DNA of 64,000 bases. Source: an uncultured Ignavibacteria bacterium. GTDB lineage: Bacteria; Zixibacteria; MSB-5A5; RBG-16-43-9. The notes under the pieces are model-generated. The model was not told the DNA's origin and did no database searches. It saw only the letters and a program-made list of their open reading frames with translations. Positions within the stretch are counted from its first letter, which is position 1, and the number at the start of each line of letters is the position of its first letter. The stretch is from NCBI GenBank assembly GCA_964570765.1, contig CAZMZF010000001.1:47626-111625 (forward strand). The letters are read 5' to 3'. This document shows, one piece after another, positions 3,499 through 41,950 of this stretch. The translations under genes and the position numbers were made by a program.

Positions 3499-3583
3499 AA
3501 AGGTTCAAGGGTTCAATGGTTCAAAAGCTCAAGGGAAAATAATGACAAATTATAGATGACAGATATAAAATAAAAGAATCATA

Positions 3584-3742
3584 GGCGGAGCACCTTGCTC
3601 CGCAAAAACGTAGATCGTAGAGTCCGACCTTTGTGTCGGACAATGAAAGGTTTATCGTAGCGCCCGTAGGGCAATGCGACCCTGTCCTACGGTGGCTACG
3701 CCAGACGTAGTCTCCGTTATTAGGAAAAGGGTCGCGCTACGA
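3584..3742. repeat. Cluster of REP-like palindromes (GGCGGAGC hairpin, GTCCGAC hairpin, GTAGCGC...GCGCTAC family)
   Basis: Nested palindromes. The last 65 bp (3678-3742) recur at 7725-7789 with one mismatch. Confidence 0.6.
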
Positions 3743-3753
3743 CAAAATATATT

Positions 3754-5280
3754 ATGTTCAAAAAAATTCTTATAGCTAATCGGGGAGAGATCGCAGTCAG
3801 GATTATACGAGCTTGCAGAGAGTTAGGGATAAAAGCGGTCGCGGTCTTTTCTGAAATAGACCGAAAAGGTTTACATGTTCGGATGGCAGATGAAGCTTAT
3901 TTTATCGGACCCTCACCTTCAGTTGCCAGTTACCTTAATATGGAAAAGTTAATTGAGGTGACAAAAAAAGCAGGGTGCGAGGGGATTCATCCGGGTTATG
4001 GCTTTTTAGCAGAAAATCCAGTGTTCGCCCGATTAGTTGAAAAAGAGGGATTGGTTTTCATCGGTCCGCCTGCCTCTGCCATTGAGCTTTTAGGGGATAA
4101 AATGGCGGCCAGAAAAACGATGAAAAAAGCCGGGATCGAAGTTGTTCCCGGAACTGAGGAACCTTTAGAGTCTGAAAAGCAGGGGCTTTCTATTGCTCAA
4201 AAAATAGGTTTCCCAATTTTAATTAAAGCGGCTGGTGGTGGAGGGGGAAAAGGGATGAGGATTGTCAGAAATGAAAAAGATTTAAAAGAGGCCATGAGGG
4301 CTTGTTCCTCTGAAGCTAAATCTGCCTTTGCGGATGCCAGGATCTATATTGAAAAATATTTAGAGAAACCCAGACATATTGAGATTCAGATCTTAGGTGA
4401 TAAATTCGGAAATATTATTTATTTAGGGGAGAGGGAGTGCTCTATTCAGAGAAGACATCAGAAGGTGATTGAGGAATCTCCTTCACCGATTGTAGATGAG
4501 GTTATGCGAAAGAAAATGGGTGAGACGGCGGTTAAAGCAGCTAAAGCGGCTGGATATCGCAATGCAGGAACAATGGAATTTTTGGTTGATTCTGATAAAA
4601 ACTTCTATTTCTTAGAGGCTAATACTCGACTTCAGGTAGAACATCCGGTTACGGAGATGGTTACCGGGATCGATATAGCCAAGGAGCAGATGAAGATTGC
4701 CTCAGGTTTGCCTTTAAGCTACAAGCAGGCGGATGTTACCTGGAAGGGAGCATCTATAGAATGTCGGATTTATGCTGAGGACCCGGAAAACAATTTTCTG
4801 CCTTCAACCGGTACGGTTTCATATTATGAAGAGCCAGCAGGTCCAGGGATCAGGGTTGATTCCGGTCTTTATGAAGGATGTGATGTCCCGATCTACTATG
4901 ATCCAATCATAGGAAAATTAATCACCTGGGGTAAAGATAGAGAGGAAGCTATTCAGAGAATGAGAAGAGCTTTAGCGGAATATCATATTTCCGGTGTAGC
5001 TACCACCATACCTTTTCACATTCAGGTGATGGAGAATGAAAAATTCAAGCAAGGAGAATTGTCTACTCATTTTATTGAAGAGGAGTTTAATCAAGGCAGA
5101 AAAGCTCAACTTGAAGAAAATAGTTATAGAATGGTGGCTTTGTTTTCGGCTTTAGCTGAATATAAAAATATACAAAAGGTTCAAAGGTTCAATCCGCCAG
5201 GGCGGACAAAGACTCAAGAGAAGGAAAATCCGTGGAAGATGGAAGGGAGAAGAAGAGGATTAAGAAAATTTGGGATTTAA
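3754..5280 (+). CDS. Biotin carboxylase subunit (ATP-grasp), partner of the upstream carboxyltransferase
   Basis: N-terminus MFKKILIANRGEIAVRIIRAC, glycine-rich ATP-grasp loop GGGGGKGMR and the downstream biotin-carboxylase domain pattern. The 3' end runs through a GGTTCAAAGG/CCGCC repeat, which may extend the C-terminus. Confidence 0.9.
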   Translation: MFKKILIANRGEIAVRIIRACRELGIKAVAVFSEIDRKGLHVRMADEAYFIGPSPSVASYLNMEKLIEVTKKAGCEGIHPGYGFLAENPVFARLVEKEGLVFIGPPASAIELLGDKMAARKTMKKAGIEVVPGTEEPLESEKQGLSIAQKIGFPILIKAAGGGGGKGMRIVRNEKDLKEAMRACSSEAKSAFADARIYIEKYLEKPRHIEIQILGDKFGNIIYLGERECSIQRRHQKVIEESPSPIVDEVMRKKMGETAVKAAKAAGYRNAGTMEFLVDSDKNFYFLEANTRLQVEHPVTEMVTGIDIAKEQMKIASGLPLSYKQADVTWKGASIECRIYAEDPENNFLPSTGTVSYYEEPAGPGIRVDSGLYEGCDVPIYYDPIIGKLITWGKDREEAIQRMRRALAEYHISGVATTIPFHIQVMENEKFKQGELSTHFIEEEFNQGRKAQLEENSYRMVALFSALAEYKNIQKVQRFNPPGRTKTQEKENPWKMEGRRRGLRKFGI

Positions 5281-5306
5281 GTATAAAGTAATACTTTAAA
5301 GCATAT

Positions 5307-5813
5307 ATGAAATACATTGCTAATATTGAAGATAAGAGTTTTGAAGTTGATATAATTGAGACTGATGGTAAACTGATAATAAAGCTTGATGGTCAACCTG
5401 TTGCGGTTGATTTTGTGCAAGTTAAACCACCTAATCTTTTTTCATTTCTGGTGGATAATCAATCGTTTGATGTGGAGATAGTAAAAAATGCTGAGGGGTA
5501 CTGGGTAAATTTTAATGGAAGAAGATATGAATGTATTTTAGAGGATGAGAAAATTCAAAAGATAAAAGATATTGTCGGGTTTAAAAAAGAGATTTTGCAT
5601 GATAGAGAACTTAAATCTCCAATGCCTGGTTTAGTCGTTGCCATTGAGGTTGAGGAGGGGGAGATGGTGAAAGTGGGGCAGGGTGTTGCCATAGTTGAGG
5701 CGATGAAGATGGAAAATGAGTTGAAAGCTAAATTTGATGGGAAAGTGAAAAAAGTCAGGGTGAAACCGGGACAGGCAGTGGAAAAGAACGAGATTCTGGT
5801 AATATTTGAATGA
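5307..5813 (+). CDS. Biotin carboxyl carrier protein (biotinyl domain)
   Basis: C-terminal EAMKM biotinylation motif (VEAMKMENEL). Confidence 0.8.
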   Translation: MKYIANIEDKSFEVDIIETDGKLIIKLDGQPVAVDFVQVKPPNLFSFLVDNQSFDVEIVKNAEGYWVNFNGRRYECILEDEKIQKIKDIVGFKKEILHDRELKSPMPGLVVAIEVEEGEMVKVGQGVAIVEAMKMENELKAKFDGKVKKVRVKPGQAVEKNEILVIFE

Positions 5814-6048
5814 GAAAAAACGTTTTTCGTGACCGTTGTTCGTGAGCGTTGAAAAAATGTAGAGAGGTTCAATAGTTCAAAGGTTTAATAGTTCAAGGGC
5901 AAAAAAGATATAGAATTCATTGCGGGGAAACCAGGCCGGAATGACGAAATTCGTAGGACGTTCGCCCGACACGATGGTCGGGCGTTAAGAGTTTCAGCTA
6001 CTTGCTACATGCTACCTGCTAAGAGCTATTAATAGATGAGAGAGGTAA

Positions 6049-7647
6049 ATGATGGATGATAAACGCAAATTTTTCACCACCTCAAATATTCCCATAAACG
6101 AGCTTTATACTACAGAAGACCTTTCTGATTTCGATTACACCAGTAACTTAAGCTATCCGGGGAAATATCCTTTCACCCGTGGGGTGCAGAAGGATATGTA
6201 TCGGGGACGCTTGTGGACGATGAGGCAGTATGCTGGCTTTGGGACTGCTCTGGAGACTAATAAACGGTTCAAATATTTATTACAGAAGGGACAGACCGGT
6301 TTATCAATTGCCTTCGATCTTCCTACCCAAATCGGTTATGATTCTGACCATCCCTTATCCTCAGGTGAAGTGGGCAAAACCGGAGTAGCGATCGATACGC
6401 TTAAGGATATGGAAATACTTTTTGATGGAATTCCATTGGATAAAGTTAGCACCTCAATGACTATAAATGCTACAGCTTCAATCCTTTTAGCGATGTACGT
6501 GGCTTTAGCTAAAAAGCAAAATGTCCCCCTAAATCTACTCTCCGGCACGATTCAAAATGATATTCTAAAAGAATATATTGCCAGAGGAACATACATCTTT
6601 CCCCCTCGCCCTTCGATGAGACTTACTACTGACATTTTTAAATACTCCAGTGAAAATCTTCCAAAATTTAATCCAATAAGTGTTAGCGGTTATCATATCA
6701 GGGAGGCTGGGGCAACTGCGGTGCAGGAGATTGCTTTTACATTAGCTAACGGCATAACCTATGTGCAGGAAGCGATAAATTCCGGGCTGAAAGTGAATGA
6801 TTTCGCTAAACGGGTTTCATTTTTCTTGAATTCTCACAGTAATTTCTTTGAGGAGATAGCCAAGTTCAGAGCAGCCAGGAGGCTCTGGGCGAAAATTATA
6901 AAAGAGAGATTCAGGGCAGAAGAAGATGTATGTAAATTAAGATTTCACACTCAGACTGCAGGATGTACCCTTACTGCCCAACAGCCTGAAAATAATATAA
7001 TTAGAGTAGCCCTGCAGGCACTTTCCTCAATCCTGGGAGGGACTCAATCGTTACATACCAATTCAATGGATGAGGCATTAAGTCTTCCCTCACAAAAGTC
7101 AGCTGAAATAGCTTTAAGAACACAACAGATTATTGCCTATGAGAGCGGGGTTACTGATACGGTTGACCCCTTAGCTGGAGCTTATTTTATTGAAGCTTTG
7201 ACCAATAGAATAGAGGATGAGGCGAGAAAATATATAGATTATATCGTAAAGAATGGTGGTGCATTATGGGCGGTCGAATCTGGATATTATCAGAAAGAGA
7301 TTCAGAAAAGCGCTTATGAATATCAAAAGATGATAGAATCAAAAGAGAAAATTATTGTAGGGGTGAACAAATTTGAGGCTGAAGTTGAAAAAGAGAAAAG
7401 AAAAAAGATTTTTAAGGTAAGTAAAAAGGGAACATTGGATCAGATTAAAAGATTAAAAGAAGTAAAAGAAAAAAGAGATAAAGAAAAAGTGAAAAAGTCA
7501 CTGGATGAATTGAGAAATAAAATTAATACGGATGAGAATTTAATGTATCCGATAATTCATTGCGTAGAAGCTTATACCTCAATTGGTGAGATCTGCGAGG
7601 TCTTAAAAAGTGTCTGTGGAGAGTATGAACAGAAAGTAATAATTTAA
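6049..7647 (+). CDS. Methylmalonyl-CoA mutase, catalytic (N-terminal) subunit without a B12-binding domain
   Basis: 532 aa with the mutase TIM-barrel pattern (RMYAGFGT..., SIAFDLPTQ...). Lys-rich C-terminal linker and no cobalamin-binding DxHxxG domain. Confidence 0.8.
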   Translation: MMDDKRKFFTTSNIPINELYTTEDLSDFDYTSNLSYPGKYPFTRGVQKDMYRGRLWTMRQYAGFGTALETNKRFKYLLQKGQTGLSIAFDLPTQIGYDSDHPLSSGEVGKTGVAIDTLKDMEILFDGIPLDKVSTSMTINATASILLAMYVALAKKQNVPLNLLSGTIQNDILKEYIARGTYIFPPRPSMRLTTDIFKYSSENLPKFNPISVSGYHIREAGATAVQEIAFTLANGITYVQEAINSGLKVNDFAKRVSFFLNSHSNFFEEIAKFRAARRLWAKIIKERFRAEEDVCKLRFHTQTAGCTLTAQQPENNIIRVALQALSSILGGTQSLHTNSMDEALSLPSQKSAEIALRTQQIIAYESGVTDTVDPLAGAYFIEALTNRIEDEARKYIDYIVKNGGALWAVESGYYQKEIQKSAYEYQKMIESKEKIIVGVNKFEAEVEKEKRKKIFKVSKKGTLDQIKRLKEVKEKRDKEKVKKSLDELRNKINTDENLMYPIIHCVEAYTSIGEICEVLKSVCGEYEQKVII

Positions 7648-7678
7648 AATACGTGTGAAGGATTCGATGATTGGAGAT

Positions 7679-7789
7679 TGTAGCGCGAGGCCTCAAGGTC
7701 TTGAGACTTTCAGCCTCGCAATGTGACCCTGTCCTGCGGTGGCTACGCCAGACGTAGTCTCCGTTATTAGGAAAAGGGTCGCGCTACGA
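7679..7789. repeat. REP-like palindrome cluster (GTAGCGCGAGGC...GCCTCGC, then GACCCTGTCC...GGGTCGCGCTAC)
   Basis: Palindromes read from the sequence. The terminal 65 bp repeat 3678-3742. Confidence 0.6.
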
Positions 7790-7802
7790 AAGGTCGAAAA
7801 TT

Positions 7803-8201
7803 ATGAAAATAGAAAAAATTGAACATATCGGGATTGCAGTGAAAAGCATTGATGAAGTGGCGAAATTCTACAGCAACATTCTTAATCTAAAAATCTCTGA
7901 AAAAATTGTGGTGCCTCAAAGAAAGATTAGAATTGCCTTTGTCCAGCTCTCTGAAACAAAGTTGGAGCTATTAGAGTCGATGGAGGAAGGGAGTGTTATT
8001 GATAAATTCATTCAGAAAAAGGGGGAAGGGATTCATCATATTTGCTTTGAGGTGGAGGATTTTGATAAGGTTGTAGCTGAGCTAAAGGATAAAAAAGTAG
8101 AATTGGTGGGCGAACCCCGGACAGGTGCAGAAGGAAAGAGAATCGTTTTCCTCCAGCCTAAAAATGCGTTTGGGGTGTTGATTGAGTTAAAGGAAAAATA
8201 G
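7803..8201 (+). CDS. Methylmalonyl-CoA epimerase (VOC/glyoxalase family)
   Basis: 132 aa. N-terminus IEHIGIAVKSIDE is typical of epimerases, and the gene sits in the methylmalonyl-CoA cluster. Confidence 0.75.
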   Translation: MKIEKIEHIGIAVKSIDEVAKFYSNILNLKISEKIVVPQRKIRIAFVQLSETKLELLESMEEGSVIDKFIQKKGEGIHHICFEVEDFDKVVAELKDKKVELVGEPRTGAEGKRIVFLQPKNAFGVLIELKEK

Positions 8202-8326
8202 CACAGCTGATTGGAATGATTAAGCAAATTAAAAAATACGGATGACAGAGTTTTTCGTAGCGCCCGTAGGGCAATGCGACCCTAAAAGGTCGCGCTACGA
8301 AACTGCAACTTGATTAAGAGAATTAA

Positions 8327-9325
8327 GTGATAGATATTTTTGGTTATCAAATTGAACGTGATTTATTTTTGACAATTCTAGGTATTATTGTTGCGGGTAT
8401 AATTAGCTTTTTTACTTGGATTCGTCCTCGTCGGGCAAAACTGAAAAAACAAGACGAAGAGCGTCTTTGGCGTATTGAAAAACAAGCAAAAGAAACAAAT
8501 GAAAACATAAAGCTAATACAAAGGCATTTTGACATTCCGATTTATGTAGATGAGTTACCTTCTGCACGTCCATCAGTATTTGTCCCATTTCTTAAAGGGT
8601 TAAAACTTATGATGCAGCTTAAATGGGATGAAGCAATACTTGAATTTAAGCAGGCGTTGAAAGATGCAAAAACCAGTCAATTAGTTGCCCTTTATAATTT
8701 TATAGGACTCTGTTACATTGTGTATGACAAACTCGATTTGGCTTTAGAAAGTTTTAATAATTCTTTAACTTTTGCTAGTGAGCTTGACAGCAAAGAGGGT
8801 GAAGCGGTCGCTCTTAGCATGCTTGCCATAACTTTTCGAAATAAAGGTGAATTGGACAAGTCCTTAGAATATTACCAAAATGCTTTAGTTGTATGTAGAG
8901 AAATTAACGACAAAAAATTGGAAGCAGCAATAATTTTCAGCCTTGGTCTAATCTATCAGATGAAAGGAGTTCTGGATAAAGCAGAGAAAAGCTATGAGGA
9001 AGCTCTGAAGATTTTTAGAGTAATTGGTGAAAAAGAAGGGGAAGCTAAATCGCTTGGAAACCTCGGTTTAATTTATCAGGCCAATGGTCTTTTAAATGAA
9101 GCCTTCAGATCTTTTCTATCTGCTCTTAAGATCAATAAAAAACTTGGCAGAAAGAAAGGTATAGCAGTCCAGATTAACAATATAGGTACAGTCTTTGAAG
9201 CTAAAAGAGAAAAGGAAAAAGCTCTGAGATATTTTGAAGATGCTTTGAGAATATTTACTGAAATTGGAGAGCAGAAGGGAATTGAACAAACTAAAGAAAA
9301 TATTAAAAGATTAAAAGGTGAATGA
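8327..9325 (+). CDS. TPR-repeat protein with an N-terminal transmembrane helix
   Basis: Multiple 34-aa TPR-like repeats (AxxxYxxALxI...). Hydrophobic N-terminus. Confidence 0.65.
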   Translation: MIDIFGYQIERDLFLTILGIIVAGIISFFTWIRPRRAKLKKQDEERLWRIEKQAKETNENIKLIQRHFDIPIYVDELPSARPSVFVPFLKGLKLMMQLKWDEAILEFKQALKDAKTSQLVALYNFIGLCYIVYDKLDLALESFNNSLTFASELDSKEGEAVALSMLAITFRNKGELDKSLEYYQNALVVCREINDKKLEAAIIFSLGLIYQMKGVLDKAEKSYEEALKIFRVIGEKEGEAKSLGNLGLIYQANGLLNEAFRSFLSALKINKKLGRKKGIAVQINNIGTVFEAKREKEKALRYFEDALRIFTEIGEQKGIEQTKENIKRLKGE

Positions 9326-9339
9326 GGTTCAAGTACTCC

Positions 9340-9390
9340 GTAGCGCGAGGCTTTTAGCCTCGCAATGCGACCCTGAAAGGGTCGCGCTAC
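9340..9390. repeat. REP element: GTAGCGCGAGGC-TTTTA-GCCTCGC-AATG-CGACCC-TGAAA-GGGTCGCGCTAC
   Basis: Double-hairpin palindrome with GTAG/CTAC termini, located 22 bp upstream of the RAYT gene. Confidence 0.75.
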
Positions 9391-9412
9391 GATTATAAGA
9401 AATGTAAATTAA

Positions 9413-9892
9413 ATGAAATATAGTTTTCAAAAGAGGATAAGATTAAAGGACTTTTCTTATAAAGGTTTGTGGAGATACTTCGTAACAATTTCGACGTACG
9501 AAGGTAAACGATATTTCGAAAATAATAAGTCTGTAGAGAGTTGTATTATTTATCTTAAAGATATATCGGTTTCATATAACTTCAACGTATTAGCGTATTG
9601 TTTTATGCCTGATCATTTGCATCTTTTGATTGAAGGAAAAGAGGAAGATTCTGATTTTAGGAAGTTTATGTCTATGTTTAAACAGAAGTCAAATTATCAT
9701 TGTAAAAACATCGAAGGAAATCCTCTTTGGCAAAAGGATTATTATGAACATGTTTTAAGAAGAAATGAGGATACTATACAGGTAATAAAGTATATATTAG
9801 ATAATCCGGTAAGAAAAGGGATGGTTAAGGATTTTAGAGATTATCCCTTTCTCGGTTCTTTTGTTTATGATTTAAAAGAGGTATTTTCGTAG
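9413..9892 (+). CDS. REP-associated tyrosine transposase (RAYT, IS200-like HUH Y1)
   Basis: HuH motif MPDHLHLLI and downstream catalytic Tyr region LWQKDYYEHVLR...NPVRKGMV. Same-family REPs flank the gene on both sides. Confidence 0.85.
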   Translation: MKYSFQKRIRLKDFSYKGLWRYFVTISTYEGKRYFENNKSVESCIIYLKDISVSYNFNVLAYCFMPDHLHLLIEGKEEDSDFRKFMSMFKQKSNYHCKNIEGNPLWQKDYYEHVLRRNEDTIQVIKYILDNPVRKGMVKDFRDYPFLGSFVYDLKEVFS

Positions 9893-9938
9893 CGCGAGGC
9901 TTCAGCCTCGCAATGCGATCCTAAAAGGATCGTCCTAC
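9889..9938. repeat. REP element of the same family. Its GTAG supplies the RAYT TAG stop codon
   Basis: GTAGCGCGAGGCTTCAGCCTCGCAATGCGATCCTAAAAGGATCGTCCTAC. Confidence 0.75.
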
Positions 9939-9978
9939 GAAAAGCAATACGAAAGACAAAAATATACAGGAGAACAAG

Positions 9979-11052
9979 ATGGGTCTTTTTGAGATGATGG
10001 AGGAGAAAGGGCATGAGCAGTTGATATTTTGCTACAATCAGCCCACGCATTTAAAAGCCATAATCGCTATCCACGATACTACCCTGGGAAAAGCAGTTGG
10101 AGGATGCAGGCTCTGGAAATATAATACAGAGAAAGAGGCGATTACGGATGCTTTGATTTTGTCTGAAATTATGACTTATCAATCTGCTATCTCGGATTGC
10201 GATACCGGCGGGGGCAAAGTAGTTTTGTGGCATGATTTTGAAGAAGAGCCGGATGAGGCTTATTACCGGGCTTTAGGGAGGTTTATCGAGGGGCTAAAGG
10301 GAAGGATCATTACCTATCCGGATTTAGGCACTGATACTCAGGAGATGAAGTACATTCGAAGAGAGACCGAGCATGTCCTTTTTTATGAGACCTCCTCAGG
10401 TTTGAGAGCGGAAAGCTCAGAGCTTACCGCTTATGGAGTTTACTGGGGGATGAAAGCCTGTGTTAAAGAGCTTTATGGTATATCCTCTTTAGATGGGCTT
10501 ACTGTGGCAATTCAAGGAGTAGGGAGTGTAGGTCGAATACTGGCTGATTATCTCAAGGAAGAAAAAGTAAAGCTTATCGTTACTGATTTGAACTATGATT
10601 CCATCAAAAAAGTTCAGGATAAATATCCGGATACAATTATTGCCAACCCTGAAAATATTTTAACCTGTGAATGCGATGTCTTTTCTCCCTGTGCTTTAGG
10701 TCCAGTATTCAGCAGGCAGAATATAGATAAGCTCCGATGTAAAATCATTGCTGGAGGAGCTTATAATATTTTAGAAGAGGCTTCATTGGCTGAGGAACTA
10801 TTTAAACGAGGGATTTTGTATGCTCCGGACTTTGTGATAAACAGTGGTGAGCTTTTTATGACTGCGGATGCTTTAAAGATATTATCCAAAGATGAAGCTT
10901 TAGCCTCAGCTAAAAAGATCTATGATATAATGGCAAAAGTACTGGCTATATCCAGAAGAGGGAATATCTCCCCTTATAAAGCTGCTTACCAGTTGGCAAA
11001 AGAAAGGATAATAAAAGTAGGGGATATAAAAAATATTTTATGTTGTATCTAA
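9979..11052 (+). CDS. Leucine/valine dehydrogenase (Glu/Leu/Phe/Val dehydrogenase family)
   Basis: 357 aa. IAIHDTTLG...GGCR motif and Rossmann GVGSVG motif. Confidence 0.85.
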   Translation: MGLFEMMEEKGHEQLIFCYNQPTHLKAIIAIHDTTLGKAVGGCRLWKYNTEKEAITDALILSEIMTYQSAISDCDTGGGKVVLWHDFEEEPDEAYYRALGRFIEGLKGRIITYPDLGTDTQEMKYIRRETEHVLFYETSSGLRAESSELTAYGVYWGMKACVKELYGISSLDGLTVAIQGVGSVGRILADYLKEEKVKLIVTDLNYDSIKKVQDKYPDTIIANPENILTCECDVFSPCALGPVFSRQNIDKLRCKIIAGGAYNILEEASLAEELFKRGILYAPDFVINSGELFMTADALKILSKDEALASAKKIYDIMAKVLAISRRGNISPYKAAYQLAKERIIKVGDIKNILCCI

Positions 11053-11158
11053 AAAACAGTTCAAAGGTTTAAAGGTTTAAAAGTTTAAAGGTAAAAAAGA
11101 AAATTAAACTGTTTACAATAAGAGTTCTTATCAAGGAAACAAAAGGATAGAAAAAAGT

Positions 11159-12250
11159 ATGAATAAGAAGAATAGTTTTAGAATTCTGGTAATCAACCCA
11201 GGTTCGACCTCTACCAAGGTCTCAATCTTTGAAGATGAAAAGGAGCTTTTTGGAAAAGCAATCTCCCATAGCAAATTAGAACTGGAGCCGTTTAAAAGAG
11301 TCTGGGATCAATATGAGTTCAGAAAGAAGCTGATTAAAGACTTATTGGAAGAGTATGAGATTAAGCCAGAAACTCTTTCGGCAGTAGTAGGTAGAGGTGG
11401 ACTTTTCAGGCCAGTGGTTGGTGGAACTTATCTGGTAAATGAACTGATGATCGAGGATGGTAGAAATGCTTTTGGAGGAGAACATGCGGCTAATTTAGGT
11501 GCAGTTTTAGCTTTTGGATTAGGCTGGGATTATCATATACCAGCCTTCATAGTGGATCCACCCTCTGTGGATGAATTCGAAGAATACTCCCGCTATTCAG
11601 GTTTACCGGAGTTTCCCAGGAAAAGTCTTTTTCATGCACTAAACGTAAAAGCCACAGCCCGATTAGCCGCAAACGATTTGAAGAAAAAGTTAGAGGAGAT
11701 AAATCTGATTGTGGCTCATTTAGGAGGTGGAGTTACCGTAGCGGCTCTGGAAAAGGGAAGAGCAATTGATGTTAATAATGGCTTGCACAGTGGTCCGTTT
11801 ACACCGGAAAGGTCTGGAACTTTGCCGATGTTTGATTTTGCGGAATGGTGTTTTTCCGGAAAAGTGACTTTAGAACAGGTGAAAAAAAGGATGGTGGGTG
11901 GTGGTGGTCTGGTGGCTTATTTAGGGACGAATGATGCTAAAGAGGTGGAAAAAAGAATAAAACAAGGGGATAAAAAGGCTGAAGCTGTCTATAATGCAAT
12001 GATCTATCAGATCGCCTGTGAAATCGGTGCCAGAGCTGTAGCCCTTAAGGGTAAGGTGGATGCTATCGTTTTAACCGGAGGATTAGCTTACTCGGATATG
12101 GTAGTTGAGAAGTTGAGAGAGTATGTGGGCTTTATTGCCAGGATATTAGTTTATCCAGGACAGGATGAGATGAAAGCTTTAGCTTTAGGGGCTCTCAGAG
12201 TATTAAGAGGGGAGGAGGAGGCAAAGACTTATCCGGAGATGGTCAAATAA
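11159..12250 (+). CDS. buk: Butyrate (branched-chain fatty acid) kinase
   Basis: RILVINPGSTSTK N-terminus and the acetate/butyrate-kinase fold pattern. Confidence 0.9.
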   Translation: MNKKNSFRILVINPGSTSTKVSIFEDEKELFGKAISHSKLELEPFKRVWDQYEFRKKLIKDLLEEYEIKPETLSAVVGRGGLFRPVVGGTYLVNELMIEDGRNAFGGEHAANLGAVLAFGLGWDYHIPAFIVDPPSVDEFEEYSRYSGLPEFPRKSLFHALNVKATARLAANDLKKKLEEINLIVAHLGGGVTVAALEKGRAIDVNNGLHSGPFTPERSGTLPMFDFAEWCFSGKVTLEQVKKRMVGGGGLVAYLGTNDAKEVEKRIKQGDKKAEAVYNAMIYQIACEIGARAVALKGKVDAIVLTGGLAYSDMVVEKLREYVGFIARILVYPGQDEMKALALGALRVLRGEEEAKTYPEMVK

Positions 12251-29505: not shown

Positions 29506-30033
29506 TCATTTTTCTTCTTCCAACTCCATAATAGGCTCTTCGGTATCGACCATCTGGTTTTCTTTGAAATTTACCTTTTTAACCACTCCATCTAAAGCCG
29601 ATTTTATCTCATGCTCCATCTTCATTGCCTCTACGATTGCCAGGCTCTGTTTCTTTTTTACCTTCTCACCTTCAGAAACTAAAATTTTAAGTATCCGTCC
29701 TGGCATTGGAGCACAGATTAATTGTTTACCTTCAGCTAAACCTGATTCTTCTTCTTTTCTTTTAGCTCGGGTGGCTTCTTTTTCCTGGAGGATGAATTGT
29801 TCACCCTGAATAAATATGAATCTTTTATTCTCACCCTCAGCCATATAAATTGTCTGAATATTTCCATCGATCTCGAAGGATAAGCAGTTTGGAGAGATAA
29901 TTTGACAATCTACCTCCATTTTGTTATTCCTGAAATCTACAGAGTATTTCTCACCCTTTTTCTCTATATGTACTTTATAGATTTTATCCTCTAAGAGGAA
30001 TTCAAATTCCATAGTTATCCACCTATTTCCCAT
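29506..30033 (-). CDS. Biotin carboxyl carrier protein (second set)
   Basis: IVEAMKMEHEI biotinylation motif. Confidence 0.8.
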   Translation of the reverse strand: MGNRWITMEFEFLLEDKIYKVHIEKKGEKYSVDFRNNKMEVDCQIISPNCLSFEIDGNIQTIYMAEGENKRFIFIQGEQFILQEKEATRAKRKEEESGLAEGKQLICAPMPGRILKILVSEGEKVKKKQSLAIVEAMKMEHEIKSALDGVVKKVNFKENQMVDTEEPIMELEEEK

Positions 30034-31511
30034 TTGCCCAGCGAAACCCAGGGGTCAAATCCTGTGGCTTTAACCATCTTGCCCTTCACTGAGGTCTTGT
30101 TCAATGATAGAATAGCTCCAGCTGTTAAAGCAATCTCTTTGAATTTATCTCCGGCTCTTTTATCTTTCCAATCTCCCATATTCTTAGGGATGAAATCGGT
30201 CTGGGTATTACCGGCAGTAAACTCAGGATGGGATAATAAATCTTTAAGATAACCTATCTGGGTTTTAATCCCTAAAATGGCATAATCGGAAAGAGCCTGA
30301 ATTGCCCTTTTCCTGGCAGATTCTCTGTTTTCGCCCCAGCAGATGAGTTTAGCCAGAATTGGGTCATAATGCATAGTTACTTCGATTCCGGAATATAGCC
30401 CTGAGTCATTCCTGATTCCGGGTCCGGAAGGTTCTTTAACAAACAGGATTTTTCCGAAAGAGGGGAGGAAATCATTTTCCGGGTCTTCGGCATAGATCCT
30501 GCATTCGATCGCATGTCCTCTTTGTGAAAGATCCTCCTGCTTGAAAGAAAGTTTTTCACCACTTGCAATTTTTATCTGAGTTTTAACTAAATCCACACCA
30601 GTTACCATTTCAGTAATAGGGTGCTCCACCTGAATGCGTGCATTGACCTCCAGGAAATAGTATTTTCCATTCTCATCTAAGAGAAACTCGACTGTGCCAG
30701 CATTATTATATTTTGCAGTCTGGATTACTTTCACTGCTGTTTTACCCATCTCAGCTCGAAGTTCAGGAGTTAAAGCAGTTGAGGGAGTCTCCTCAATAAT
30801 CTTTTGATGTCTTCTCTGGATGGAACATTCCCTTTCAAAAAGATGAGCTGCATTTCCATAATTATCCGCCAAGATTTGAAACTCGATATGCCTGGGTCTT
30901 TCAATACATTTCTCCAGATAAACCGACTCATCTCCAAAAGCAGACTTTGCCTCTCTCATCCCGGCTTCAATTGAGGATTTTAAATCTTCTTTAGAGCGGA
31001 TAATCCTCATCCCTTTTCCACCACCACCAGCAGAGGCTTTGAGCATCACCGGGTAGCCGATTCTTTCTGCCTGCTCTTCAAATTCCTTAAGATTTCCACC
31101 TTTCATTCTCATCCCGGGGATTATAGGGATTTTCGCCTGGGTCATTGTTTTTCGAGATTCAATTTTATCTCCAACTAATCTTAATGCCTCTGAATTGGGA
31201 CCGATGAAAATGATTTTCTCATCTTCACATCTTTTGGAAAAAAGGTAGTTTTCAGCCAAAAAGCCATAACCCGGATGAATTCCTTCTACTTTAGTCTTTT
31301 TAGTTACCTCGATGATTTTGTCTATATTTAAGTAACTTTCTAAAGGAGGAGCAGGACCTAATAGATAAGCTTCATCTGCTAATTGAACATGTAGAGCTTT
31401 TTTATCCACCTCAGAATATACCGCTACAGTTTCAATCCCTATCTCCCTGCAAGCCCGGATAATCCGAACTGCAATCTCCCCCCGGTTAGCTATTAGTATT
31501 TTTTTGAACAT
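30015..31511 (-). CDS. Biotin carboxylase (second set; methylcrotonyl-CoA carboxylase alpha-like but lacking a fused BCCP)
   Basis: MFKKILIANRGEIAVRIIRAC N-terminus and the ATP-grasp fold pattern. Confidence 0.9.
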   Translation of the reverse strand: MFKKILIANRGEIAVRIIRACREIGIETVAVYSEVDKKALHVQLADEAYLLGPAPPLESYLNIDKIIEVTKKTKVEGIHPGYGFLAENYLFSKRCEDEKIIFIGPNSEALRLVGDKIESRKTMTQAKIPIIPGMRMKGGNLKEFEEQAERIGYPVMLKASAGGGGKGMRIIRSKEDLKSSIEAGMREAKSAFGDESVYLEKCIERPRHIEFQILADNYGNAAHLFERECSIQRRHQKIIEETPSTALTPELRAEMGKTAVKVIQTAKYNNAGTVEFLLDENGKYYFLEVNARIQVEHPITEMVTGVDLVKTQIKIASGEKLSFKQEDLSQRGHAIECRIYAEDPENDFLPSFGKILFVKEPSGPGIRNDSGLYSGIEVTMHYDPILAKLICWGENRESARKRAIQALSDYAILGIKTQIGYLKDLLSHPEFTAGNTQTDFIPKNMGDWKDKRAGDKFKEIALTAGAILSLNKTSVKGKMVKATGFDPWVSLGKWEIGG

Positions 31512-31561: not shown

Positions 31562-32314
31562 TTATATTTTTACATTATATTGTTTAAGGTATTGGTCTTT
31601 AAATTTTAGAAGCTGTTTTCCTAACTTTTCTTTTTCATATGTGAGCTTACTAAAAGCCTCCTCACATTTATTAATTAACTCTTCTTTTATTAAGAAAGTT
31701 TTCTTAAAAATTGTTTTAAGAAGATCTAATGACATCCCAAGAAATCTAGTAAAAAGATACATTGTTAGTGTAGCATCTTTCTCTTGGTAAACAATCCCGT
31801 ATGGCAAAAGATCCATTTCTTGTGATGCGGAAAACACAGCAATAATATTAAGGGTTGCCCCATGTGAGAACCTACAGAGATTTTGATAGTCAGTGTACCC
31901 TTCATTGAAATTAGTATCTTTGAACCTTTTACTGACAGGAAACTTTCTCGCAAATTTCTCTGGGTCTGTAATTACAGAATCAATGTATTGTTGATTTCTT
32001 GAAAAGAAAATAATGTTTGCTATTGACTCCAACCAAGGTCTCAACAAAGACATGGCATCAAAATAAAATCCTGTTTTAATTAAATTATAGATTGCTTTAA
32101 CAGAGTAGAAATTACGATAAAATTGTATAAAGGAATAATTTTCAAATTTAGATGTACTTTTGTTGATTTCTTCCATCAATATCTTTAGAAGCTCTGAGTA
32201 GATATTCATTGCATCTTTATGAATATTCAAACTTTCAGAGAAATTCTCTTCGGTTTGGTTAATTACTTCATTTTCTTGGAAGATCAAGTCATCATAATTT
32301 ATTAACTCAAGCAT
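31562..32314 (-). CDS. Hypothetical protein (very AT-rich ORF inside the carboxylase operon)
   Basis: 250 aa with no recognisable motif. Its GC looks clearly lower than the flanking genes. Confidence 0.4.
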   Translation of the reverse strand: MLELINYDDLIFQENEVINQTEENFSESLNIHKDAMNIYSELLKILMEEINKSTSKFENYSFIQFYRNFYSVKAIYNLIKTGFYFDAMSLLRPWLESIANIIFFSRNQQYIDSVITDPEKFARKFPVSKRFKDTNFNEGYTDYQNLCRFSHGATLNIIAVFSASQEMDLLPYGIVYQEKDATLTMYLFTRFLGMSLDLLKTIFKKTFLIKEELINKCEEAFSKLTYEKEKLGKQLLKFKDQYLKQYNVKI

Positions 32315-32407: not shown

Positions 32408-33196
32408 TTATTGACTCCACTTCGGTTTTCGTTTCTCCAGAAAAGCGTTCATCCCTTCCTGTCCTTCTTCGCTGACTCTCATCTCAGCTATGACTTCAGC
32501 GGTATATCTTTTAAATTCTTCAGGTTTCATCCCTGGAACTTTCTGCAATAAATCTTTGCACATAGCTAAAGCTTTAGGACCTGAGGAAAAGAGCTGTTTT
32601 ATCCTTTCGTTTACTGCTTCATCTAACTTATCTTCTGTAACTACCTGGTTTGCCATACCGAATTGTAAAGCCTTTTGAGCATCTATCCTTTCGCCGGTTA
32701 AAAATAATTCCTTGGCTACTCTTTCACCAACTCTCCGCAATACATAGGGGGAGATACAGGCGGGGACTAAACCTAATTTTACCTCGGATAAGCTGAACTT
32801 AGCCTTTTCTGAGGCAATAACTATGTCACAGACCGCTACCAGTCCTGCTCCACCTCCAATAGCCGCACCATTTACCCTGGCGATAGTTGGCTGAGGAAGG
32901 GTGTACATCAAATAGAAAAGCTCTGCCAACTGCAGAGACTCGTTCAAATTCTCTTCATATGAATAATTGATTACTCTTTTCATCCAGTTCAAATCCGCAC
33001 CCGCACAGAAGGATTGACCGATTCCAGTAAGGACTGCAATTCTGATTTTTTCATCAGTAGAAATATTCTTGAAAACCTCAGACAGCTCTAAAATCATAAC
33101 GTCATTAAAGGCATTATGAACCTCTGGACGGTTCAAAAAAATTCTGGCGATTCGATTTTCGATTTTAAAAGCTATGGTCTGATATTCTAAAGACAT
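32408..33196 (-). CDS. Enoyl-CoA hydratase (methylglutaconyl-CoA hydratase-like)
   Basis: Crotonase fold (ARVNGAAIGGGAGLV) in an MCC-type operon. Confidence 0.8.
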   Translation of the reverse strand: MSLEYQTIAFKIENRIARIFLNRPEVHNAFNDVMILELSEVFKNISTDEKIRIAVLTGIGQSFCAGADLNWMKRVINYSYEENLNESLQLAELFYLMYTLPQPTIARVNGAAIGGGAGLVAVCDIVIASEKAKFSLSEVKLGLVPACISPYVLRRVGERVAKELFLTGERIDAQKALQFGMANQVVTEDKLDEAVNERIKQLFSSGPKALAMCKDLLQKVPGMKPEEFKRYTAEVIAEMRVSEEGQEGMNAFLEKRKPKWSQ

Positions 33197-33292: not shown

Positions 33293-34900
33293 TTACATCC
33301 TGAAAATCCCATATTTAGTCTCAGGGACAGGGGTATTAAGTGCCATAGAGATTCCTAAAGCTAATGCAGTTCTGGTCTCTACAGGATCGACTATCCCATC
33401 ATCCCATATTCGAGCGGTGCTATAATAGGGGCTGGATTCCTCTTCATATTTTTTCAAAATCGGCTCTTTGAATTTCTCCTGCTCCTCCTCGGTCATCTTA
33501 ATCCCTTTAGCTTCTAAGGATCTCATCCTTACAGTCAATAAGACATTAGCGGCCTGGTCTCCTCCCATAACGCAGATCTTGGCATTGGGCCACATCCATA
33601 AAAGACGAGGGTTATATGCTCGACCACACATTCCATAATTTCCAGCACCATAAGAGCCACCCACAATCACCGTGAACTTGGGCACATCTGCATTGGCTAC
33701 TGCATGCACCATCTTAGCTCCATCTTTGGCAATTCCTCCATGCTCATACTGCTTGCCGACAATAAACCCGGTGATATTCTGCAGGAATATCAAAGGGATT
33801 TTTCTCATAGTGCAAAGGGTGATAAAATGTGCGGCTTTAACTGAGCTTTCAGAAAAAAGAACGCCATTGTTAGCTAAGATTCCTACTGGATAGCCCATTA
33901 TCCTGGCAAAGCCTGTGACTATGGTTGGTCCATAAAGCTCCTTGAACTCCTGGAATTTGCTTCCATCCACTATGCGGGCGATAATCTCCCTCTGGTCATA
34001 AGGCTTTCTTATATCCCTGGGAATAATCCCATAGATTTCCTTTGGGTCATAATAGGGTTCTTCAGGTTCCTTTGTATCCAACTCAAATCTTTTAGGTGGG
34101 TCTAAATTCTCGATTATATTTCTGGTGATCTCTATGGCATGTTCATCGTTTAAAGCATAATGGTCAGCCACACCTGAGATTCGGCAGTGAACATCTGCTC
34201 CGCCTAATTCCTCATCTGTAACTTCCTCACCGGTTGCGGCTTTAACCAGAGGTGGACCTCCGATGAAAATCGTTCCCCGTTTTCTTACTATAACTGCCTC
34301 ATCGCTCATCGCCGGGACATAAGCTCCACCTGCAGTGCAAGAGCCTAAGACCACTGCTATCTGGGGAATCCCTAAAGCTGAAAGACGAGCTTGATTATAG
34401 AAAATTTTGCCAAAATGGTCTTTATCTGGAAATGTTCCAGATTGATAGGGCAGAAAAATTCCACCTGAATCGACTAAGTAAACGCAGGGGAGACGATTCT
34501 GTTCTGCGATTTCCTGGGCTCTAACATGTTTTTTTATGGTCATCGGGAAATAGGTTCCGCCTTTAACTGTGGCATCATTTGCCACAATCAGAACCTCTCT
34601 TCCGTGAACCACACCCACACCCGTGATTATTCCCGCACCCGGAGGCTCTTCCTCATACATCTTGTAAGCGGCTAAATGGGAGAACTCTAAGAAAGGGGTG
34701 TTTTTATCGAAAATAAGATTCAGTCTTTCCCTGGGTAAAAGCTTTCCTCTGGCTTTATGTCTTTCCTTATCCTTGGCAGAGCCACCTTCCTTAATCTTGC
34801 CTAAAACCTCCTTATACTCATCCACCACCCTTTGCATTGCCTCGGAATTGGCTTTGTATTCTAAGGAGCCTGTATCGATTTTAGATTCTATGCGGAACAT
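33293..34900 (-). CDS. Methylcrotonyl-CoA carboxylase beta-like carboxyltransferase
   Basis: 535 aa. N-terminus ...[15 protein letters not shown] is typical of the MCCB/PCCB carboxyltransferase family. Confidence 0.85.
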
Positions 34901-35239
34901 TTTGTATTTCCTTGTTTATCGTAGTGCGACTCTTTCAGGGTCGTGTAGCAGAGGTTTTAGATCTCTGCCGAGCCCTGAAGGCTCGGCTACGCGTCTATTT
35001 TCATGGTTGGGCTACCCAACACATTATACGGCCTGTCCCGAAGGACGACCAAGGTGTAAACGGGCCTGCACGACCATTTTTTCAACATAAGTTTTTTGTG
35101 CGGTAGAATAGACATTCTTGTCTGTTCTTTTATTTGTCAGACAGGAACGTCTGACGTTACGTCTTGTCATTCTGAGGGAGCGTAGCGACCGAAGAATCTG
35201 AAGACTCTTCGCTTTCGCTCAGAGTGACAGTAAAAATAA

Positions 35240-35629
35240 TTACACCGGCACGCACTTATAACCGTAGCATATAATCCCGGCTTCGCCTTCCTGAAAGATT
35301 TTCCGGAACTCGATTCTCAACGGCATCCCGATCTCTAATTTGTCAAAGTCGCAATCTGCTACCTGGGATAAAATCTTTACCCCATCATTTAGTTCCACAA
35401 TTCCCATAGCATAAGGCGTCTGGTCTGTGAATTGACTGGGTGCTACCCGGATTACAGTATAGGTAAGAAGCTTACCTTCTTTTTGTAATTTAATCTTCTC
35501 GAATTCTCTGGATTTACAACCATCGCAGATTAATCTTGGCGGAAAGAATATCTTACCGCATTTTTTGCATTTCCCAGCCTCTAATCTATATCTCTGAGGG
35601 ATTTCCCTCCAGTATTTTGGCGATGACAT
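35240..35629 (-). CDS. DUF35 protein with OB-fold and zinc-ribbon (thiolase/HMG-CoA synthase partner)
   Basis: CKKCGKIFFPPRLICDGC Zn-ribbon followed by an OB-like segment. Its stop abuts the thiolase gene upstream. Confidence 0.75.
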   Translation of the reverse strand: MSSPKYWREIPQRYRLEAGKCKKCGKIFFPPRLICDGCKSREFEKIKLQKEGKLLTYTVIRVAPSQFTDQTPYAMGIVELNDGVKILSQVADCDFDKLEIGMPLRIEFRKIFQEGEAGIICYGYKCVPV

Positions 35630-36786
35630 TATACCACCTCCACTATATGAACAATGCTACTTCCTCCGCTTCCTCCCATATTCTGGGTTAACCCTACCTT
35701 AGCATTTTTGACCTGTCTTTCACCAGCATCACCCCTGAGCTGTTTTACGATCTCGATTGCCTGGGCAACTCCGGTTGCTCCTACTGGATGTCCTTTTGAT
35801 TTTAGTCCACCGGAAGTATTAACCGGTATCTTTCCACCGAGAGTGGTTAACCCGTGCTCAGTTTCAGGACCACCTTTCCCTTTTTCCACAAAACCTAATG
35901 CCTCGATCACGCATATCTCCGCAATGGTAAAGCAGTCGTGAACCTCTGCTAAATCTATCTCTTCTGGTCTTTTGCCGGACATATCATAAGCAATTTTTGC
36001 GGCTCGCTCAGTAGATTTAATCTCAGTTAAATCATTCCGGCTGTGAAGGGCAATGGTATCAGTTGAATGACCCGACCCTATGATTTTAACAATGGGCTTG
36101 TTGGATATCTTCTTAGCTAAATCCAGGGGCACTAAAATTACTACGGCGGCTCCATCAGTTATTGGAGAGCAGTCTAAAATCCTTAACGGGTCTGCCACCA
36201 TGACCGAGTCCAGAACCTCTTCTAAAGTTATTTTCTGAGGATATTGAGCTAAGGGGTTCATTGAGCCGTGATAATGGTTTTTTACAGCGACCTGGGCAAG
36301 TTGTTTTCTCGTGGTTCCATATTTCTGCATATGGGCACGCGCCATCAAAGCATAAAGTCCAGGGAAAGTTATTCCTTGATAAACCTCATATTCCTGGTCT
36401 GCGGCAGTGGAGAGGGCAAAAGTAGCGCCAGCTACTGAAACATCGGTCATTTTCTCCACACCACCTACTAAGACTATATCGTTTAATCCTGAGGCAACTT
36501 CAATAAATCCGGTTCTTAAAGCCAATCCTCCGGAAGCACACGCAGACTCAACCCTGGTTGCTGGAATTGGCCCCATTCCTAAATAATCAGACAAAAGGGA
36601 AGAGAGGTGCTCCTGATCCACAAAAAGACCTGAGGACATACAGCCAACATACATAGAGTCGATATGGTCAACACCCGCATCTTCAATCGCCAATAATGCG
36701 GCTTCAGTGAAGATATCCCTTAAAGATTTTTCCCATAACTCCCCCCATTTATTCATTCCTACACCGATTATGGCTACGTCTCTCAT
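35629..36786 (-). CDS. Archaeal-type acetyl-CoA C-acetyltransferase (thiolase)
   Basis: 385 aa. Catalytic Cys region VESACASGG and the HDCF motif. Confidence 0.85.
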
Positions 36787-36794
36787 TTTCCCTC

Positions 36795-37841
36795 CTATTC
36801 TCCCTTCCTGATTTTTCCACGGTATTTAGCATAAGTTCCGTATTCCACGTAGAATTTATTATTATTTAACATCTCTCTGGTTTTAATTGCTTTGTCCCTG
36901 ACCTGATTTATCCTCTCGGTTACCCTCCAGACAAAAGCATCACTACCAGCACCTGAACCATAAGAAACCATAAAGATTAAATCATCAGGCTTAGCTTCAT
37001 CCAGGATGGCAGTTAATCCCATTGGGGATGAACCTGAATAGGTGTTTCCTAATTTGGGGCACAAAAGACCGGTTTCCATCTGTTTTTTTTCAAATCCTAA
37101 GAGCTTACCTACCTTCACAGGAAATTTTCCATTGGGCTGGTGAAAAACTGCATATTGAAAATCATTAGGCTTCATTTTTACTTTCTCTAACAGACCTTTT
37201 CCTGCACCCAGGATATGTTTGAAATAAGCCGGGTCACCGGTAAATCTGGAGGCATGTCTGGGATAGAATTGATACTCTCTTCTCCAGAAATCCGGGGTAT
37301 CGGTCATATAGGAATAGCTATCAACTGCCTCAGCGATAATATTGTTCTTGCCCATAATGAAAGCCGCAGCTCCTGCAGCTGCAGTATATTCTAAGGCATC
37401 CCCGGGTGCTCCCTGAGAAGTGTCTGCTCCAATTGCCAAGCCATATTCGATAGAGCCGGATCCGACCAAACCGAGGCAGACGAACATCGCCTCAGACCCA
37501 GCCTTGCAGGCGAACTCAAAGTCTGCGCAGTGAACGTCTGGAGTAGCTCCGATTGCCTCTCCTACAACTGTTCCGCTCGGTTTTACTGCATAAGGATGTG
37601 ATTCTGAGCCCACATAGACTGCTCCAATTTTTTTAGGATCGATCTGCGCTCTTTTCAAAGCACTTAAAGCGGCTTCGACTGACATAGTGATAGTGTCCTG
37701 ATCTGGAGCTGGTACAGATTTTTCTTCCACGTTAAGCCCCTTCTTATAGGCTTGTGCATCAGCACCCCAGACCTTGGCGATCTCTTCCACCTTTATCCTG
37801 TGTCTGGGGATGTAAGCCCCGTATCCTGTGATTCCAACCAT
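36795..37841 (-). CDS. Hydroxymethylglutaryl-CoA synthase (archaeal-type)
   Basis: 348 aa. Catalytic GADTS..., CKAGSEAM and HQPNGKF motifs typical of HMGCS. Confidence 0.85.
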
Positions 37842-38279
37842 AGATTACCCTCGCTTTCTTTTTATTTTCAAAAGGAAAAGTATTATACTAAATAGATATG
37901 GAAAAAGTCAAGATTTTTTGACAGAATATTTTTTTAAAGTTTTAGGGATCCAGTTTTGGAGAAAGCACAGGTGACTTTCTAGGTAGAGACGCATTGCCAT
38001 GCGTCTCTACTTCTTTCGTAAAACTCATCTTGACATGGAAGACGGTTTCTCTCCTACAGGAAAGGGGATAGTTGAAAGCTGTAGGGGTGAAGTTACCTCG
38101 TCCCTACAAAAAATATTTAATTTTAATGTTCTTTGTCCGAGTTTGTCATCAAGACCCAAAATCGGGGATCCATAGGATTGGTATCCTCACCAAGAAGAAA
38201 AAATCGTTGGTCGGGAGACCAACGATTAGCAAAGGGCGTATGGCAATACGCCCCTACGATCTATTCGATATCTGATATT

Positions 38280-41949: not shown

Positions 41950-41950
41950 G

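Follow-up and report, generated by a model that had tools for sequence, protein, structure and literature searches.

A three-gene module for an archaeal-type 3-hydroxy-3-methylglutaryl-CoA (HMG-CoA) synthase (HMGCS), a thiolase and a DUF35 scaffold protein stands next to a set of methylcrotonyl-CoA carboxylase (MCC) genes in a 64,000-nucleotide stretch of DNA from an uncultured Ignavibacteria bacterium (GTDB lineage Zixibacteria; assembly GCA_964570765.1, contig CAZMZF010000001.1, positions 47,626 to 111,625). This whole stretch is referred to below as the window. The adjacency of the trio and the MCC genes is not incidental, and the two modules form an operon that is conserved across several phyla. 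The chances are about even that the seven genes constitute a single leucine/isovalerate catabolic operon in which the thiolase/HMGCS/DUF35 complex stands in place of HMG-CoA lyase. The wider proposal is that the complex is physiologically reversed as a thiolytic HMG-CoA cleavage system, that this replacement extends across Zixibacteria, Ignavibacteria, Aminicenantes and allied phyla, and that it would be the first natural reversal of HMGCS; its chances fall a little short of even.

Conservation of the trio-MCC linkage

The linkage was assessed from both modules. A scan anchored on HMGCS and restricted to one genome per species gave 80 loci, with HMGCS proteins 71–93% identical to that of the window and with the labels Zixibacteria, Ignavibacteria, Calditrichaceae, Aminicenantes/Acidobacteriota, Eisenbacteria, Gemmatimonadota and several unclassified bins. 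Neighbouring genes were assigned by tblastn, and loci extending at least 2.2 kb past DUF35 were considered informative (n = 54). MCC-beta, the carboxyltransferase subunit, was the next gene on the same strand in 45 of these (83%), under the labels Zixibacteria, Ignavibacteria, Aminicenantes/Acidobacteriota and Eisenbacteria. Where at least 6 kb of downstream sequence was available, MCC-beta and biotin carboxylase (BC) were both present in 36 of 41 loci. Carriers of the operon whose genome is complete or nearly so are OY969724.1, CP070742.1 and CP070813.1 (Zixibacteria), CP070825.1, CP070750.1 and OY969696.1 (Aminicenantes), and CP070707.1.

The reverse test was an independent metagenome scan anchored on MCC-beta, in which 46 loci extended at least 3.2 kb upstream. 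HMGCS and thiolase were directly upstream of MCC-beta in 44 of them (96%). One of the remaining two loci had HMGCS and thiolase 4.3 kb upstream and the other was without them. A separate homologue search with MCC-beta, aimed at lyase-bearing MCC operons, listed only relatives of the same clade that were at least 76% identical. Among MCC-beta-anchored contigs with precomputed Pfam annotation, trio linkage was seen in two of three. The pairwise identities of trio and MCC proteins co-vary over 39 loci (r = 0.72–0.90), as tightly as they do within each module. In a neighbour-joining tree of HMGCS, the MCC-linked members are spread across nearly the whole bacterial clade, and the unlinked members fall in a few small subclades.

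Identity of the trio proteins

The initial annotation had proposed three open reading frames (ORFs) encoding an archaeal-type HMGCS, a thiolase and a DUF35 protein, and all three were recovered on the minus strand at exactly the coordinates given there. The first gene of the unit (36795..37841) encodes a 348-aa HMGCS that scored above the cut-off of both archaeal equivalog models (TIGR00748, 549.5 bits versus 353.35; NF003274, 558 versus 244). The second (35629..36786) encodes a 385-aa archaeal-type (SCP2-like) acetoacetyl-CoA thiolase, which clears the subfamily model PRK06064 (550 bits versus a cut-off of 420) and reaches 556.7 bits with the Methanothermococcus thiolase equivalog (NF053570, AcCoTHIOL_METTL), just under its cut-off of 600. 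The third (35240..35629) encodes a 129-aa DUF35 scaffold protein with a Zn-ribbon and an OB fold (Pfam zf-ChsH2 and OB_ChsH2_C). The top PDB match of each protein was the respective chain of 6ESQ/6ET9, with 487.6 bits for HMGCS (6ESQ chain I), 370 bits for the thiolase (chain A) and 126 bits for DUF35 (chain E).

The active-site residues were examined in alignments of bacterial homologues. Glu80, Cys112, His234 and Asn266 of HMGCS are invariant in 81 sequences, and Cys83, His283 and His333 of the thiolase are invariant in 71 sequences. Cysteines 21, 24, 35 and 38 of DUF35 are kept in 64–65 of 65 sequences. The trio proteins are thus assigned as close orthologues of the crystallised Methanothermococcus complex, with the catalytic residues intact. 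The high similarity to the crystallised proteins suggests that they form a heteromeric complex with a fused CoA-binding site.

Other identities were considered for these proteins. A PhlABC/Muc-type acyltransferase identity for the trio was ruled out on scores far below those to the 6ESQ/6ET9 chains; the HMGCS reached just 96–224 bits with repurposed PhlA/Muc-type proteins, against 488 bits with bona fide archaeal HMGCS. A BbsAB identity for the thiolase and DUF35 was ruled out in the same way, with PDB scores much lower than those to the 6ESQ/6ET9 chains.

Gene order and the MCC module

The order of transcription is HMGCS, thiolase, DUF35, MCC-beta, a crotonase-family hydratase, a 250-aa ORF, BC, and a protein with a BT-like domain and a biotin carboxyl carrier protein (BCCP) domain. 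The trio had been described as lying downstream of the MCC genes. The shared strand was confirmed, but the trio is transcribed first and the MCC genes follow; since every gene is read from the minus strand, the trio heads the unit and lies closest to the promoter. Its junctions are tight or overlapping, as had been noted, with a gap of 8 nt between HMGCS and thiolase and a 1-nt overlap between the thiolase stop and the DUF35 start. The best sigma-70-like promoter match of the region, TTGACT-18-TATAAT (11/12, a consensus match only), is located at 37882..37911 on the minus strand, with the HMGCS start ~40 nt downstream of it. A terminator-like hairpin at 38227-38202, just upstream of HMGCS and of the promoter-like site, closes the preceding gene.

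DUF35 and MCC-beta are separated by a spacer of 339 nt (34901..35239, minus strand) that contains hairpin repeats, including a REP-like element at 34919-34942. The spacer owes its length to the REP-like hairpins that fill it, and no terminator-like site was found in it on the minus strand. The same spacer has a median length of 130 nt in relatives and is as short as 2–7 nt.

The MCC-beta, BC and BCCP assignments of the initial annotation held up in PDB, Pfam and NCBIfam comparisons, and that of the hydratase is probable, its best NCBIfam models lying under their cut-offs. The carboxyltransferase at 33293..34900 (minus strand, 535 aa) scored 753 bits with P. aeruginosa MCC-beta (3U9R) and 752 bits with human MCCC2, compared to 470 bits with geranyl-CoA carboxylase and ~250-290 bits with chains of the propionyl-CoA carboxylase (PCC) type. 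On these scores it is clearly assigned to MCC-beta. The hydratase (32408..33196, minus strand, 262 aa, ECH_1) has PRK07468 (281.7 bits) and PRK05674 (gamma-carboxygeranoyl-CoA hydratase, 264.4 bits) as its best NCBIfam models. Both scores are well above those for generic enoyl-CoA hydratases. The closest NCBIfam models are LiuC/AtuE-like, and the PDB matches are unannotated crotonases. The ranking of the models and the conserved position of the gene suggest that it is probably a 3-methylglutaconyl-CoA hydratase.

MCC-alpha is split into two polypeptides. The BC part (30015..31511, minus strand, 498 aa) has the domains Biotin_carb_N, CPSase_L_D2 and Biotin_carb_C and matches accC-type models. 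The BT-like/BCCP part (29506..30033, minus strand, 175 aa) has Biotin_lipoyl, with ACCA_BT below cut-off, and its gene overlaps the BC gene by 19 nt. Both the split and the order BC followed by BCCP recur in related loci. The 250-aa ORF between the hydratase and BC (31562..32314, minus strand) is not conserved; Pfam gave only a weak DUF5677 match and an NCBIfam search gave none. At this junction, relatives carry unrelated ORFs or nothing, and their unrelated ORFs mark it as an insertion hot spot. Among other Zixibacteria loci, the ORFs at the junction include a probable transposase-like ORF (assigned without a profile check).

Search for HMG-CoA lyase and HMG-CoA reductase

The initial annotation had reported no HMG-CoA lyase in sight, and none was found in the window by Pfam or tblastn. 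The lyase queries were human HMG-CoA lyase (identical to 2CW6 over residues 28-325) and the P. aeruginosa lyase from that PDB alignment. The reductase queries were the P. mevalonii class II enzyme (928 bits to 1QAX) and the human catalytic domain, the latter an unverified sequence. The searches covered the window and ~160 related loci, ~2.1 Mb in all, that is, the surroundings of the operon. Neither enzyme gave a tblastn match at E<=1 in the window and the 80 genome loci (1.17 Mb), and 80 loci from metagenomes (1.0 Mb) gave none at E<=1e-6. Pfam HMGL-like and HMG-CoA_red domains were absent from the window ORFs scanned.

Unbiased clustering of the neighbouring ORFs yielded no recurrent family resembling mevalonate enzymes. 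Families that do recur beside the operon are short-chain acyl-CoA dehydrogenases, hydroxyacyl-CoA dehydrogenase/thiolase pairs, a mutase, an amino-acid dehydrogenase, sigma/anti-sigma factors and similar. Proteins of the AibA/AibB type (glutaconate CoA-transferase family) and an AibC reductase were likewise not seen in Pfam scans of the window ORFs; no specific queries for them were made in the related loci.

Proposed role in leucine catabolism

The initial annotation had left two possibilities, a mevalonate route or a lyase-independent handling of leucine-derived HMG-CoA. The conserved operon, its catabolic context and the lack of a local lyase favour the second, and the mevalonate route is disfavoured. 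The nearby amino-acid dehydrogenase or aminotransferase would turn leucine into 2-ketoisocaproate, from which an enzyme not encoded in the window would make isovaleryl-CoA. A short-chain acyl-CoA dehydrogenase would then give 3-methylcrotonyl-CoA, MCC would carboxylate this to 3-methylglutaconyl-CoA at the expense of ATP, and the hydratase would produce HMG-CoA. HMG-CoA is the sole metabolite connecting the trio with the MCC genes, which implies flux between the two modules.

In the remaining steps, HMGCS would run in reverse, converting HMG-CoA and CoA to acetoacetyl-CoA and acetyl-CoA. This step would be uphill. Acetoacetyl-CoA would be handed via the shared CoA site to the thiolase and cleaved with a second CoA in a strongly downhill step, for a net conversion of HMG-CoA and two CoA to three acetyl-CoA. 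All three thioesters would be kept, no free acetoacetate would be formed and a CoA-transferase would not be needed. Compared to lyase plus CoA-transferase, the gain would be about one ATP equivalent per leucine, via phosphotransacylase and kinase. Condensation by thiolase is uphill by about +25 kJ/mol, against about -20 to -25 kJ/mol for the HMGCS reaction; the two nearly cancel, so that three acetyl-CoA and HMG-CoA are near equilibrium. Free acetoacetyl-CoA would be expected to be tiny in either direction, and a fused CoA site would then serve cleavage as well as synthesis. The direction of flux, the formation of the complex and the energetic benefit are all proposed here from the sequence and from these considerations.

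The catabolic reading is favoured because it fits the gene context, lets an ATP-dependent carboxylase work in its usual direction and agrees with the missing lyase in an operon otherwise like liu/yng. The context consists of an amino-acid dehydrogenase, a branched-chain aminotransferase, phosphate butyryltransferase and butyrate kinase (Ptb/Buk), acyl-CoA dehydrogenases, PCC, a mutase and an epimerase in the window, which are recurrent in relatives.

Several points weigh against this assignment. HMGCS is considered irreversible under physiological conditions, since its reaction ends with the hydrolysis of a thioester. To our knowledge, there is no reported physiological reversal of HMGCS, none was found in the searchable literature, and we know of no characterised function of a thiolase/HMGCS/DUF35 complex other than a biosynthetic one. 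A lyase might be encoded elsewhere in the genome, which would remove the need for reversal. The hydratase lies under the NCBIfam cut-offs. The two acyl-CoA dehydrogenases of the window appear to be of the Bcd type, with no clear isovaleryl-CoA dehydrogenase, and NCBIfam and PDB comparisons do not discriminate their substrate. Finally, 9 of the 54 informative trios are without MCC as the next gene, and one metagenome-assembled genome (MAG) holds two trios, one with MCC and one without. On both counts the trio would also have a role independent of MCC.

The MAG in question is JBGVTE01 (Aminicenantaceae), whose trios, L016 and L045, have HMGCS proteins that are 78% identical; one trio is followed by MCC and the other is stand-alone. 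The stand-alone Aminicenantes trios L016 and L051 group in a clade of their own and represent either paralogues with a distinct function or the product of a mixed bin.

Alternative explanations

The alternative that survives best, although it is unlikely, is an anabolic one. The complex would make HMG-CoA from acetyl-CoA, the hydratase would dehydrate it, and MCC would be reversed as an ATP-yielding decarboxylase to give 3-methylcrotonyl-CoA, which would be reduced to isovaleryl-CoA. The latter would prime iso-branched fatty acids or feed leucine synthesis, in a manner similar to the Aib route of Myxococcus with MCC replacing AibA/B. Myxococcus uses HMGCS and a liu hydratase exactly in this way, and iso-C15:0 lipids are probably abundant in many of the phyla that carry the operon. 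The anabolic route keeps HMGCS in its known exergonic direction and the complex in its known role (Vogeli et al. 2018, as cited in PMC11522927). The adjoining acyl-CoA dehydrogenases resemble Bcd enzymes, which are enoyl-CoA reducers in fermenters, and the operon linkage fits this route equally well as it does catabolism. However, an ATP-dependent biotin carboxylase would have to be reversed physiologically, for which no precedent is known, and in Myxococcus a separate decarboxylase evolved instead. Neither an AibA/B-type CoA-transferase-family protein nor an AibC-type reductase was seen among the Pfam-scanned window ORFs. The nearby amino-acid dehydrogenase, aminotransferase, PCC and mutase already give isovaleryl-CoA from leucine and point to catabolism.

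Next in order, and improbable, is a role in mevalonate supply, in which the trio (from acetyl-CoA) and MCC with the hydratase (from leucine) would both feed an HMG-CoA reductase encoded elsewhere. The model for such a role is provided by haloarchaea and trypanosomatids, where leucine feeds isoprenoids. The trio is the mevalonate entry module in archaea, a flow from leucine to mevalonate is known in haloarchaea, stand-alone trios exist, and a reductase may be encoded beyond the surroundings of the operons that the searches covered. Against this, no reductase was found with class I or class II queries in the window or around the ~160 operons. In addition, bacterial mevalonate genes are mostly clustered, and their main carrier phyla exclude the lineages found here, which use the methylerythritol phosphate (MEP) pathway ubiquitously (PMC6107057). 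The negative searches and this published survey together weaken the case for mevalonate supply. The isoprenoid demand of a bacterium would also hardly warrant a dedicated, ATP-consuming carboxylase operon. No mevalonate genes were found beside the stand-alone trios L016 and L051, whose neighbours are unrelated transporters and regulators.

The least probable explanation is that the modules share no pathway, the trio serving acetoacetyl-CoA or polyhydroxyalkanoate metabolism or another acyl-CoA condensation independently of MCC, with a lyase elsewhere and the adjacency an inherited gene order; DUF35/thiolase pairs do occur in varied roles (polyhydroxyalkanoates, archaeal fatty-acid synthesis, acyltransferases) and some trios are without MCC, but a linkage in several phyla of 96% when anchored on MCC and 83% when anchored on the trio, DUF35/MCC-beta spacers down to 2-7 nt, the co-variation of the modules, and an HMGCS far closer to bona fide archaeal HMGCS than to PhlA/Muc-type proteins (488 versus 96–224 bits) all argue against it.

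If the proposed reversal in leucine catabolism is true, it would overturn the textbook irreversibility of HMG-CoA synthase, and the channelling architecture of archaeal isoprenoid synthesis would be a two-way device. It would also mean a more energy-efficient degradation of leucine and isovalerate in abundant uncultivated bacteria of sediments and the subsurface, with a higher ATP yield under anaerobic conditions. If the operon is anabolic instead, the ATP-yielding reversal of a biotin carboxylase would be equally unexpected. Either way, one of two 'irreversible' enzymes would run against its usual direction, unless a lyase or a reductase is encoded elsewhere. Annotation pipelines would wrongly score leucine degradation as incomplete, and the mevalonate pathway as partly present, in these phyla.

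Surrounding branched-chain amino-acid cluster

The minus-strand genes continue past BCCP from 28981 to 15751, as assigned by Pfam, NCBIfam and PDB comparisons. They encode a 3-hydroxyacyl-CoA dehydrogenase (27641-28981), a second SCP2-type thiolase (26381-27628), two Bcd-type short-chain acyl-CoA dehydrogenases (25081-26223 and 23918-25051), a short-chain enoyl-CoA hydratase (22930-23703), a Leu/Val-type amino-acid dehydrogenase (21707-22771), butyrate kinase (20449-21516), phosphate butyryltransferase (18467-19366), a branched-chain aminotransferase (16686-17609) and a second phosphate butyryltransferase (15751-16647). The two acyl-CoA dehydrogenases scored 415-486 bits with Bcd-type enzymes compared to ~290-320 bits with isovaleryl-CoA dehydrogenase. 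Both are nearest to the Bcd of electron-bifurcating Bcd/EtfAB complexes (5OL2, 4L1F), and no Etf genes were seen among the window ORFs.

A companion Val/Ile branch is encoded on the plus strand (1948..12250) and includes PCC-beta, a biotin carboxylase, a BCCP, methylmalonyl-CoA mutase and an epimerase. It also contains a TPR-repeat ORF, a Y1-transposase-like ORF, a second amino-acid dehydrogenase and a second butyrate kinase. The second carboxylase of the window (1948-5813) is a PCC, beside the mutase, the epimerase, the amino-acid dehydrogenase and the butyrate kinase. The co-occurrence of the trio-MCC unit, its continuation and the PCC/mutase branch marks the region as a branched-chain amino-acid catabolic supercluster. 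In three related loci the operon is followed by genes for an aldehyde:ferredoxin oxidoreductase, a ThiS-like protein and an aldehyde dehydrogenase (L082, 15018-19309; L086 and L087, ~15601-19964).

Repeat elements

The REP-like element in the DUF35/MCC-beta spacer belongs to a 24-nt hairpin family, GACCCT-NAAAG-NGTCGC-ACTACGA, which reads on the opposite strand as GTAG followed by a palindrome. Four copies are present in the window, where none is expected (9369-9392, 22799-22822, 29177-29200 and 34919-34942), and the long spacers inside the operon are due to this element. All four copies are intergenic and upstream of the start of a gene on the same strand, three of them within ~30 nt. One copy lies 21 nt upstream of the IS200/Y1-transposase-like ORF (9413-9892). 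The hairpin and the Y1-transposase-like ORF together resemble a REP/RAYT system.

A second palindrome family, GAGACGCAT-N3-4-ATGCGTCTC, has three copies in the window, also with none expected (29222-29242, 37986-38007 and 61133-61153). Two of these bracket the seven-gene unit from HMGCS to BCCP, and a similar hairpin, GGGCGTAT...ATACGCCC, is located nearby at 38234-38253. The GAGACGCAT/ATGCGTCTC palindrome may represent a REP-like element, mark the end of a transcript or act as an operator.

Host and remainder of the window

The window has a G+C content of ~40%. Genes for a Peptidase_S11 D-Ala-D-Ala carboxypeptidase, UvrB and dockerin proteins indicate a bacterial host, and the closest genomic relative is a Zixibacteria MAG (L002) with an HMGCS that is 93% identical. 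Rfam and tRNA scans of the window gave no matches. A stretch of low G+C content (0.32) at 40939-44087 encodes a PAPS-reductase-like protein, a DUF6602 protein and two ParB-like proteins, and may be a defence or mobile island. At 55226-58894 the plus strand encodes a NurA nuclease and a HerA-type (DUF87) ATPase, with a 195-aa ORF without a family match between them.

Comparison with known systems

A trio-MCC operon was not found described in the searchable literature, and leucine, HMG and isoprenoids all go unmentioned in the genome paper on Zixibacteria RBG-1. Recent work has described DUF35/thiolase complexes reused for archaeal fatty-acid synthesis and antibiotic acylation, not for leucine catabolism. 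At the level of its proteins, the trio would belong to the thiolase/HMGCS/DUF35 family in the full sense, and at the level of the pathway the unit would be a liu-type operon that departs from that type in its lyase.

The Pseudomonas liuRABCDE and Bacillus subtilis yng operons share MCC-beta, MCC-alpha, nearby acyl-CoA dehydrogenases and, probably, a methylglutaconyl-CoA-type hydratase with the operon in the window, and in the B. subtilis yng operon MCC-alpha is likewise split into BC and BCCP. The canonical liu/yng operons encode HMG-CoA lyase (liuE/yngG), whereas the window and the related loci have no lyase match and carry the trio there instead. The alternative isovaleryl-CoA pathway of Myxococcus xanthus (MvaS, LiuC, AibA/B, AibC) resembles the operon in that HMGCS is coupled to a hydratase of the leucine pathway via HMG-CoA. 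It differs in using a bacterial-type MvaS, the decarboxylase AibA/B and the reductase AibC, none of them seen among the scanned window ORFs, where the window has an archaeal-type HMGCS with thiolase and DUF35 and an ATP-dependent MCC.

In the case of BbsAB (benzoylsuccinyl-CoA thiolase, 7PXP) and Ltp2-ChsH2 (6OK1), the likeness lies in a DUF35 protein paired with an enzyme of the SCP2-type thiolase fold and in the direction of C-C cleavage. That such complexes work towards cleavage speaks for the proposed reversal. These systems are far more distant, however, with thiolase scores of 199 and 105 bits and DUF35 scores of 38 and 50 bits, act on other substrates and have no HMGCS partner. The M. 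thermolithotrophicus complex (6ESQ/6ET9) has the same three proteins in one operon, with the catalytic Glu/Cys/His of HMGCS, the Cys/His/His of the thiolase and the Zn-ribbon cysteines kept. The archaeal complex serves the mevalonate pathway, whereas the trio of the window is found in a bacterial host, in an operon with MCC and the hydratase and with no reductase nearby, and the flux proposed for it would be the opposite of that characterised for the archaeal complex.

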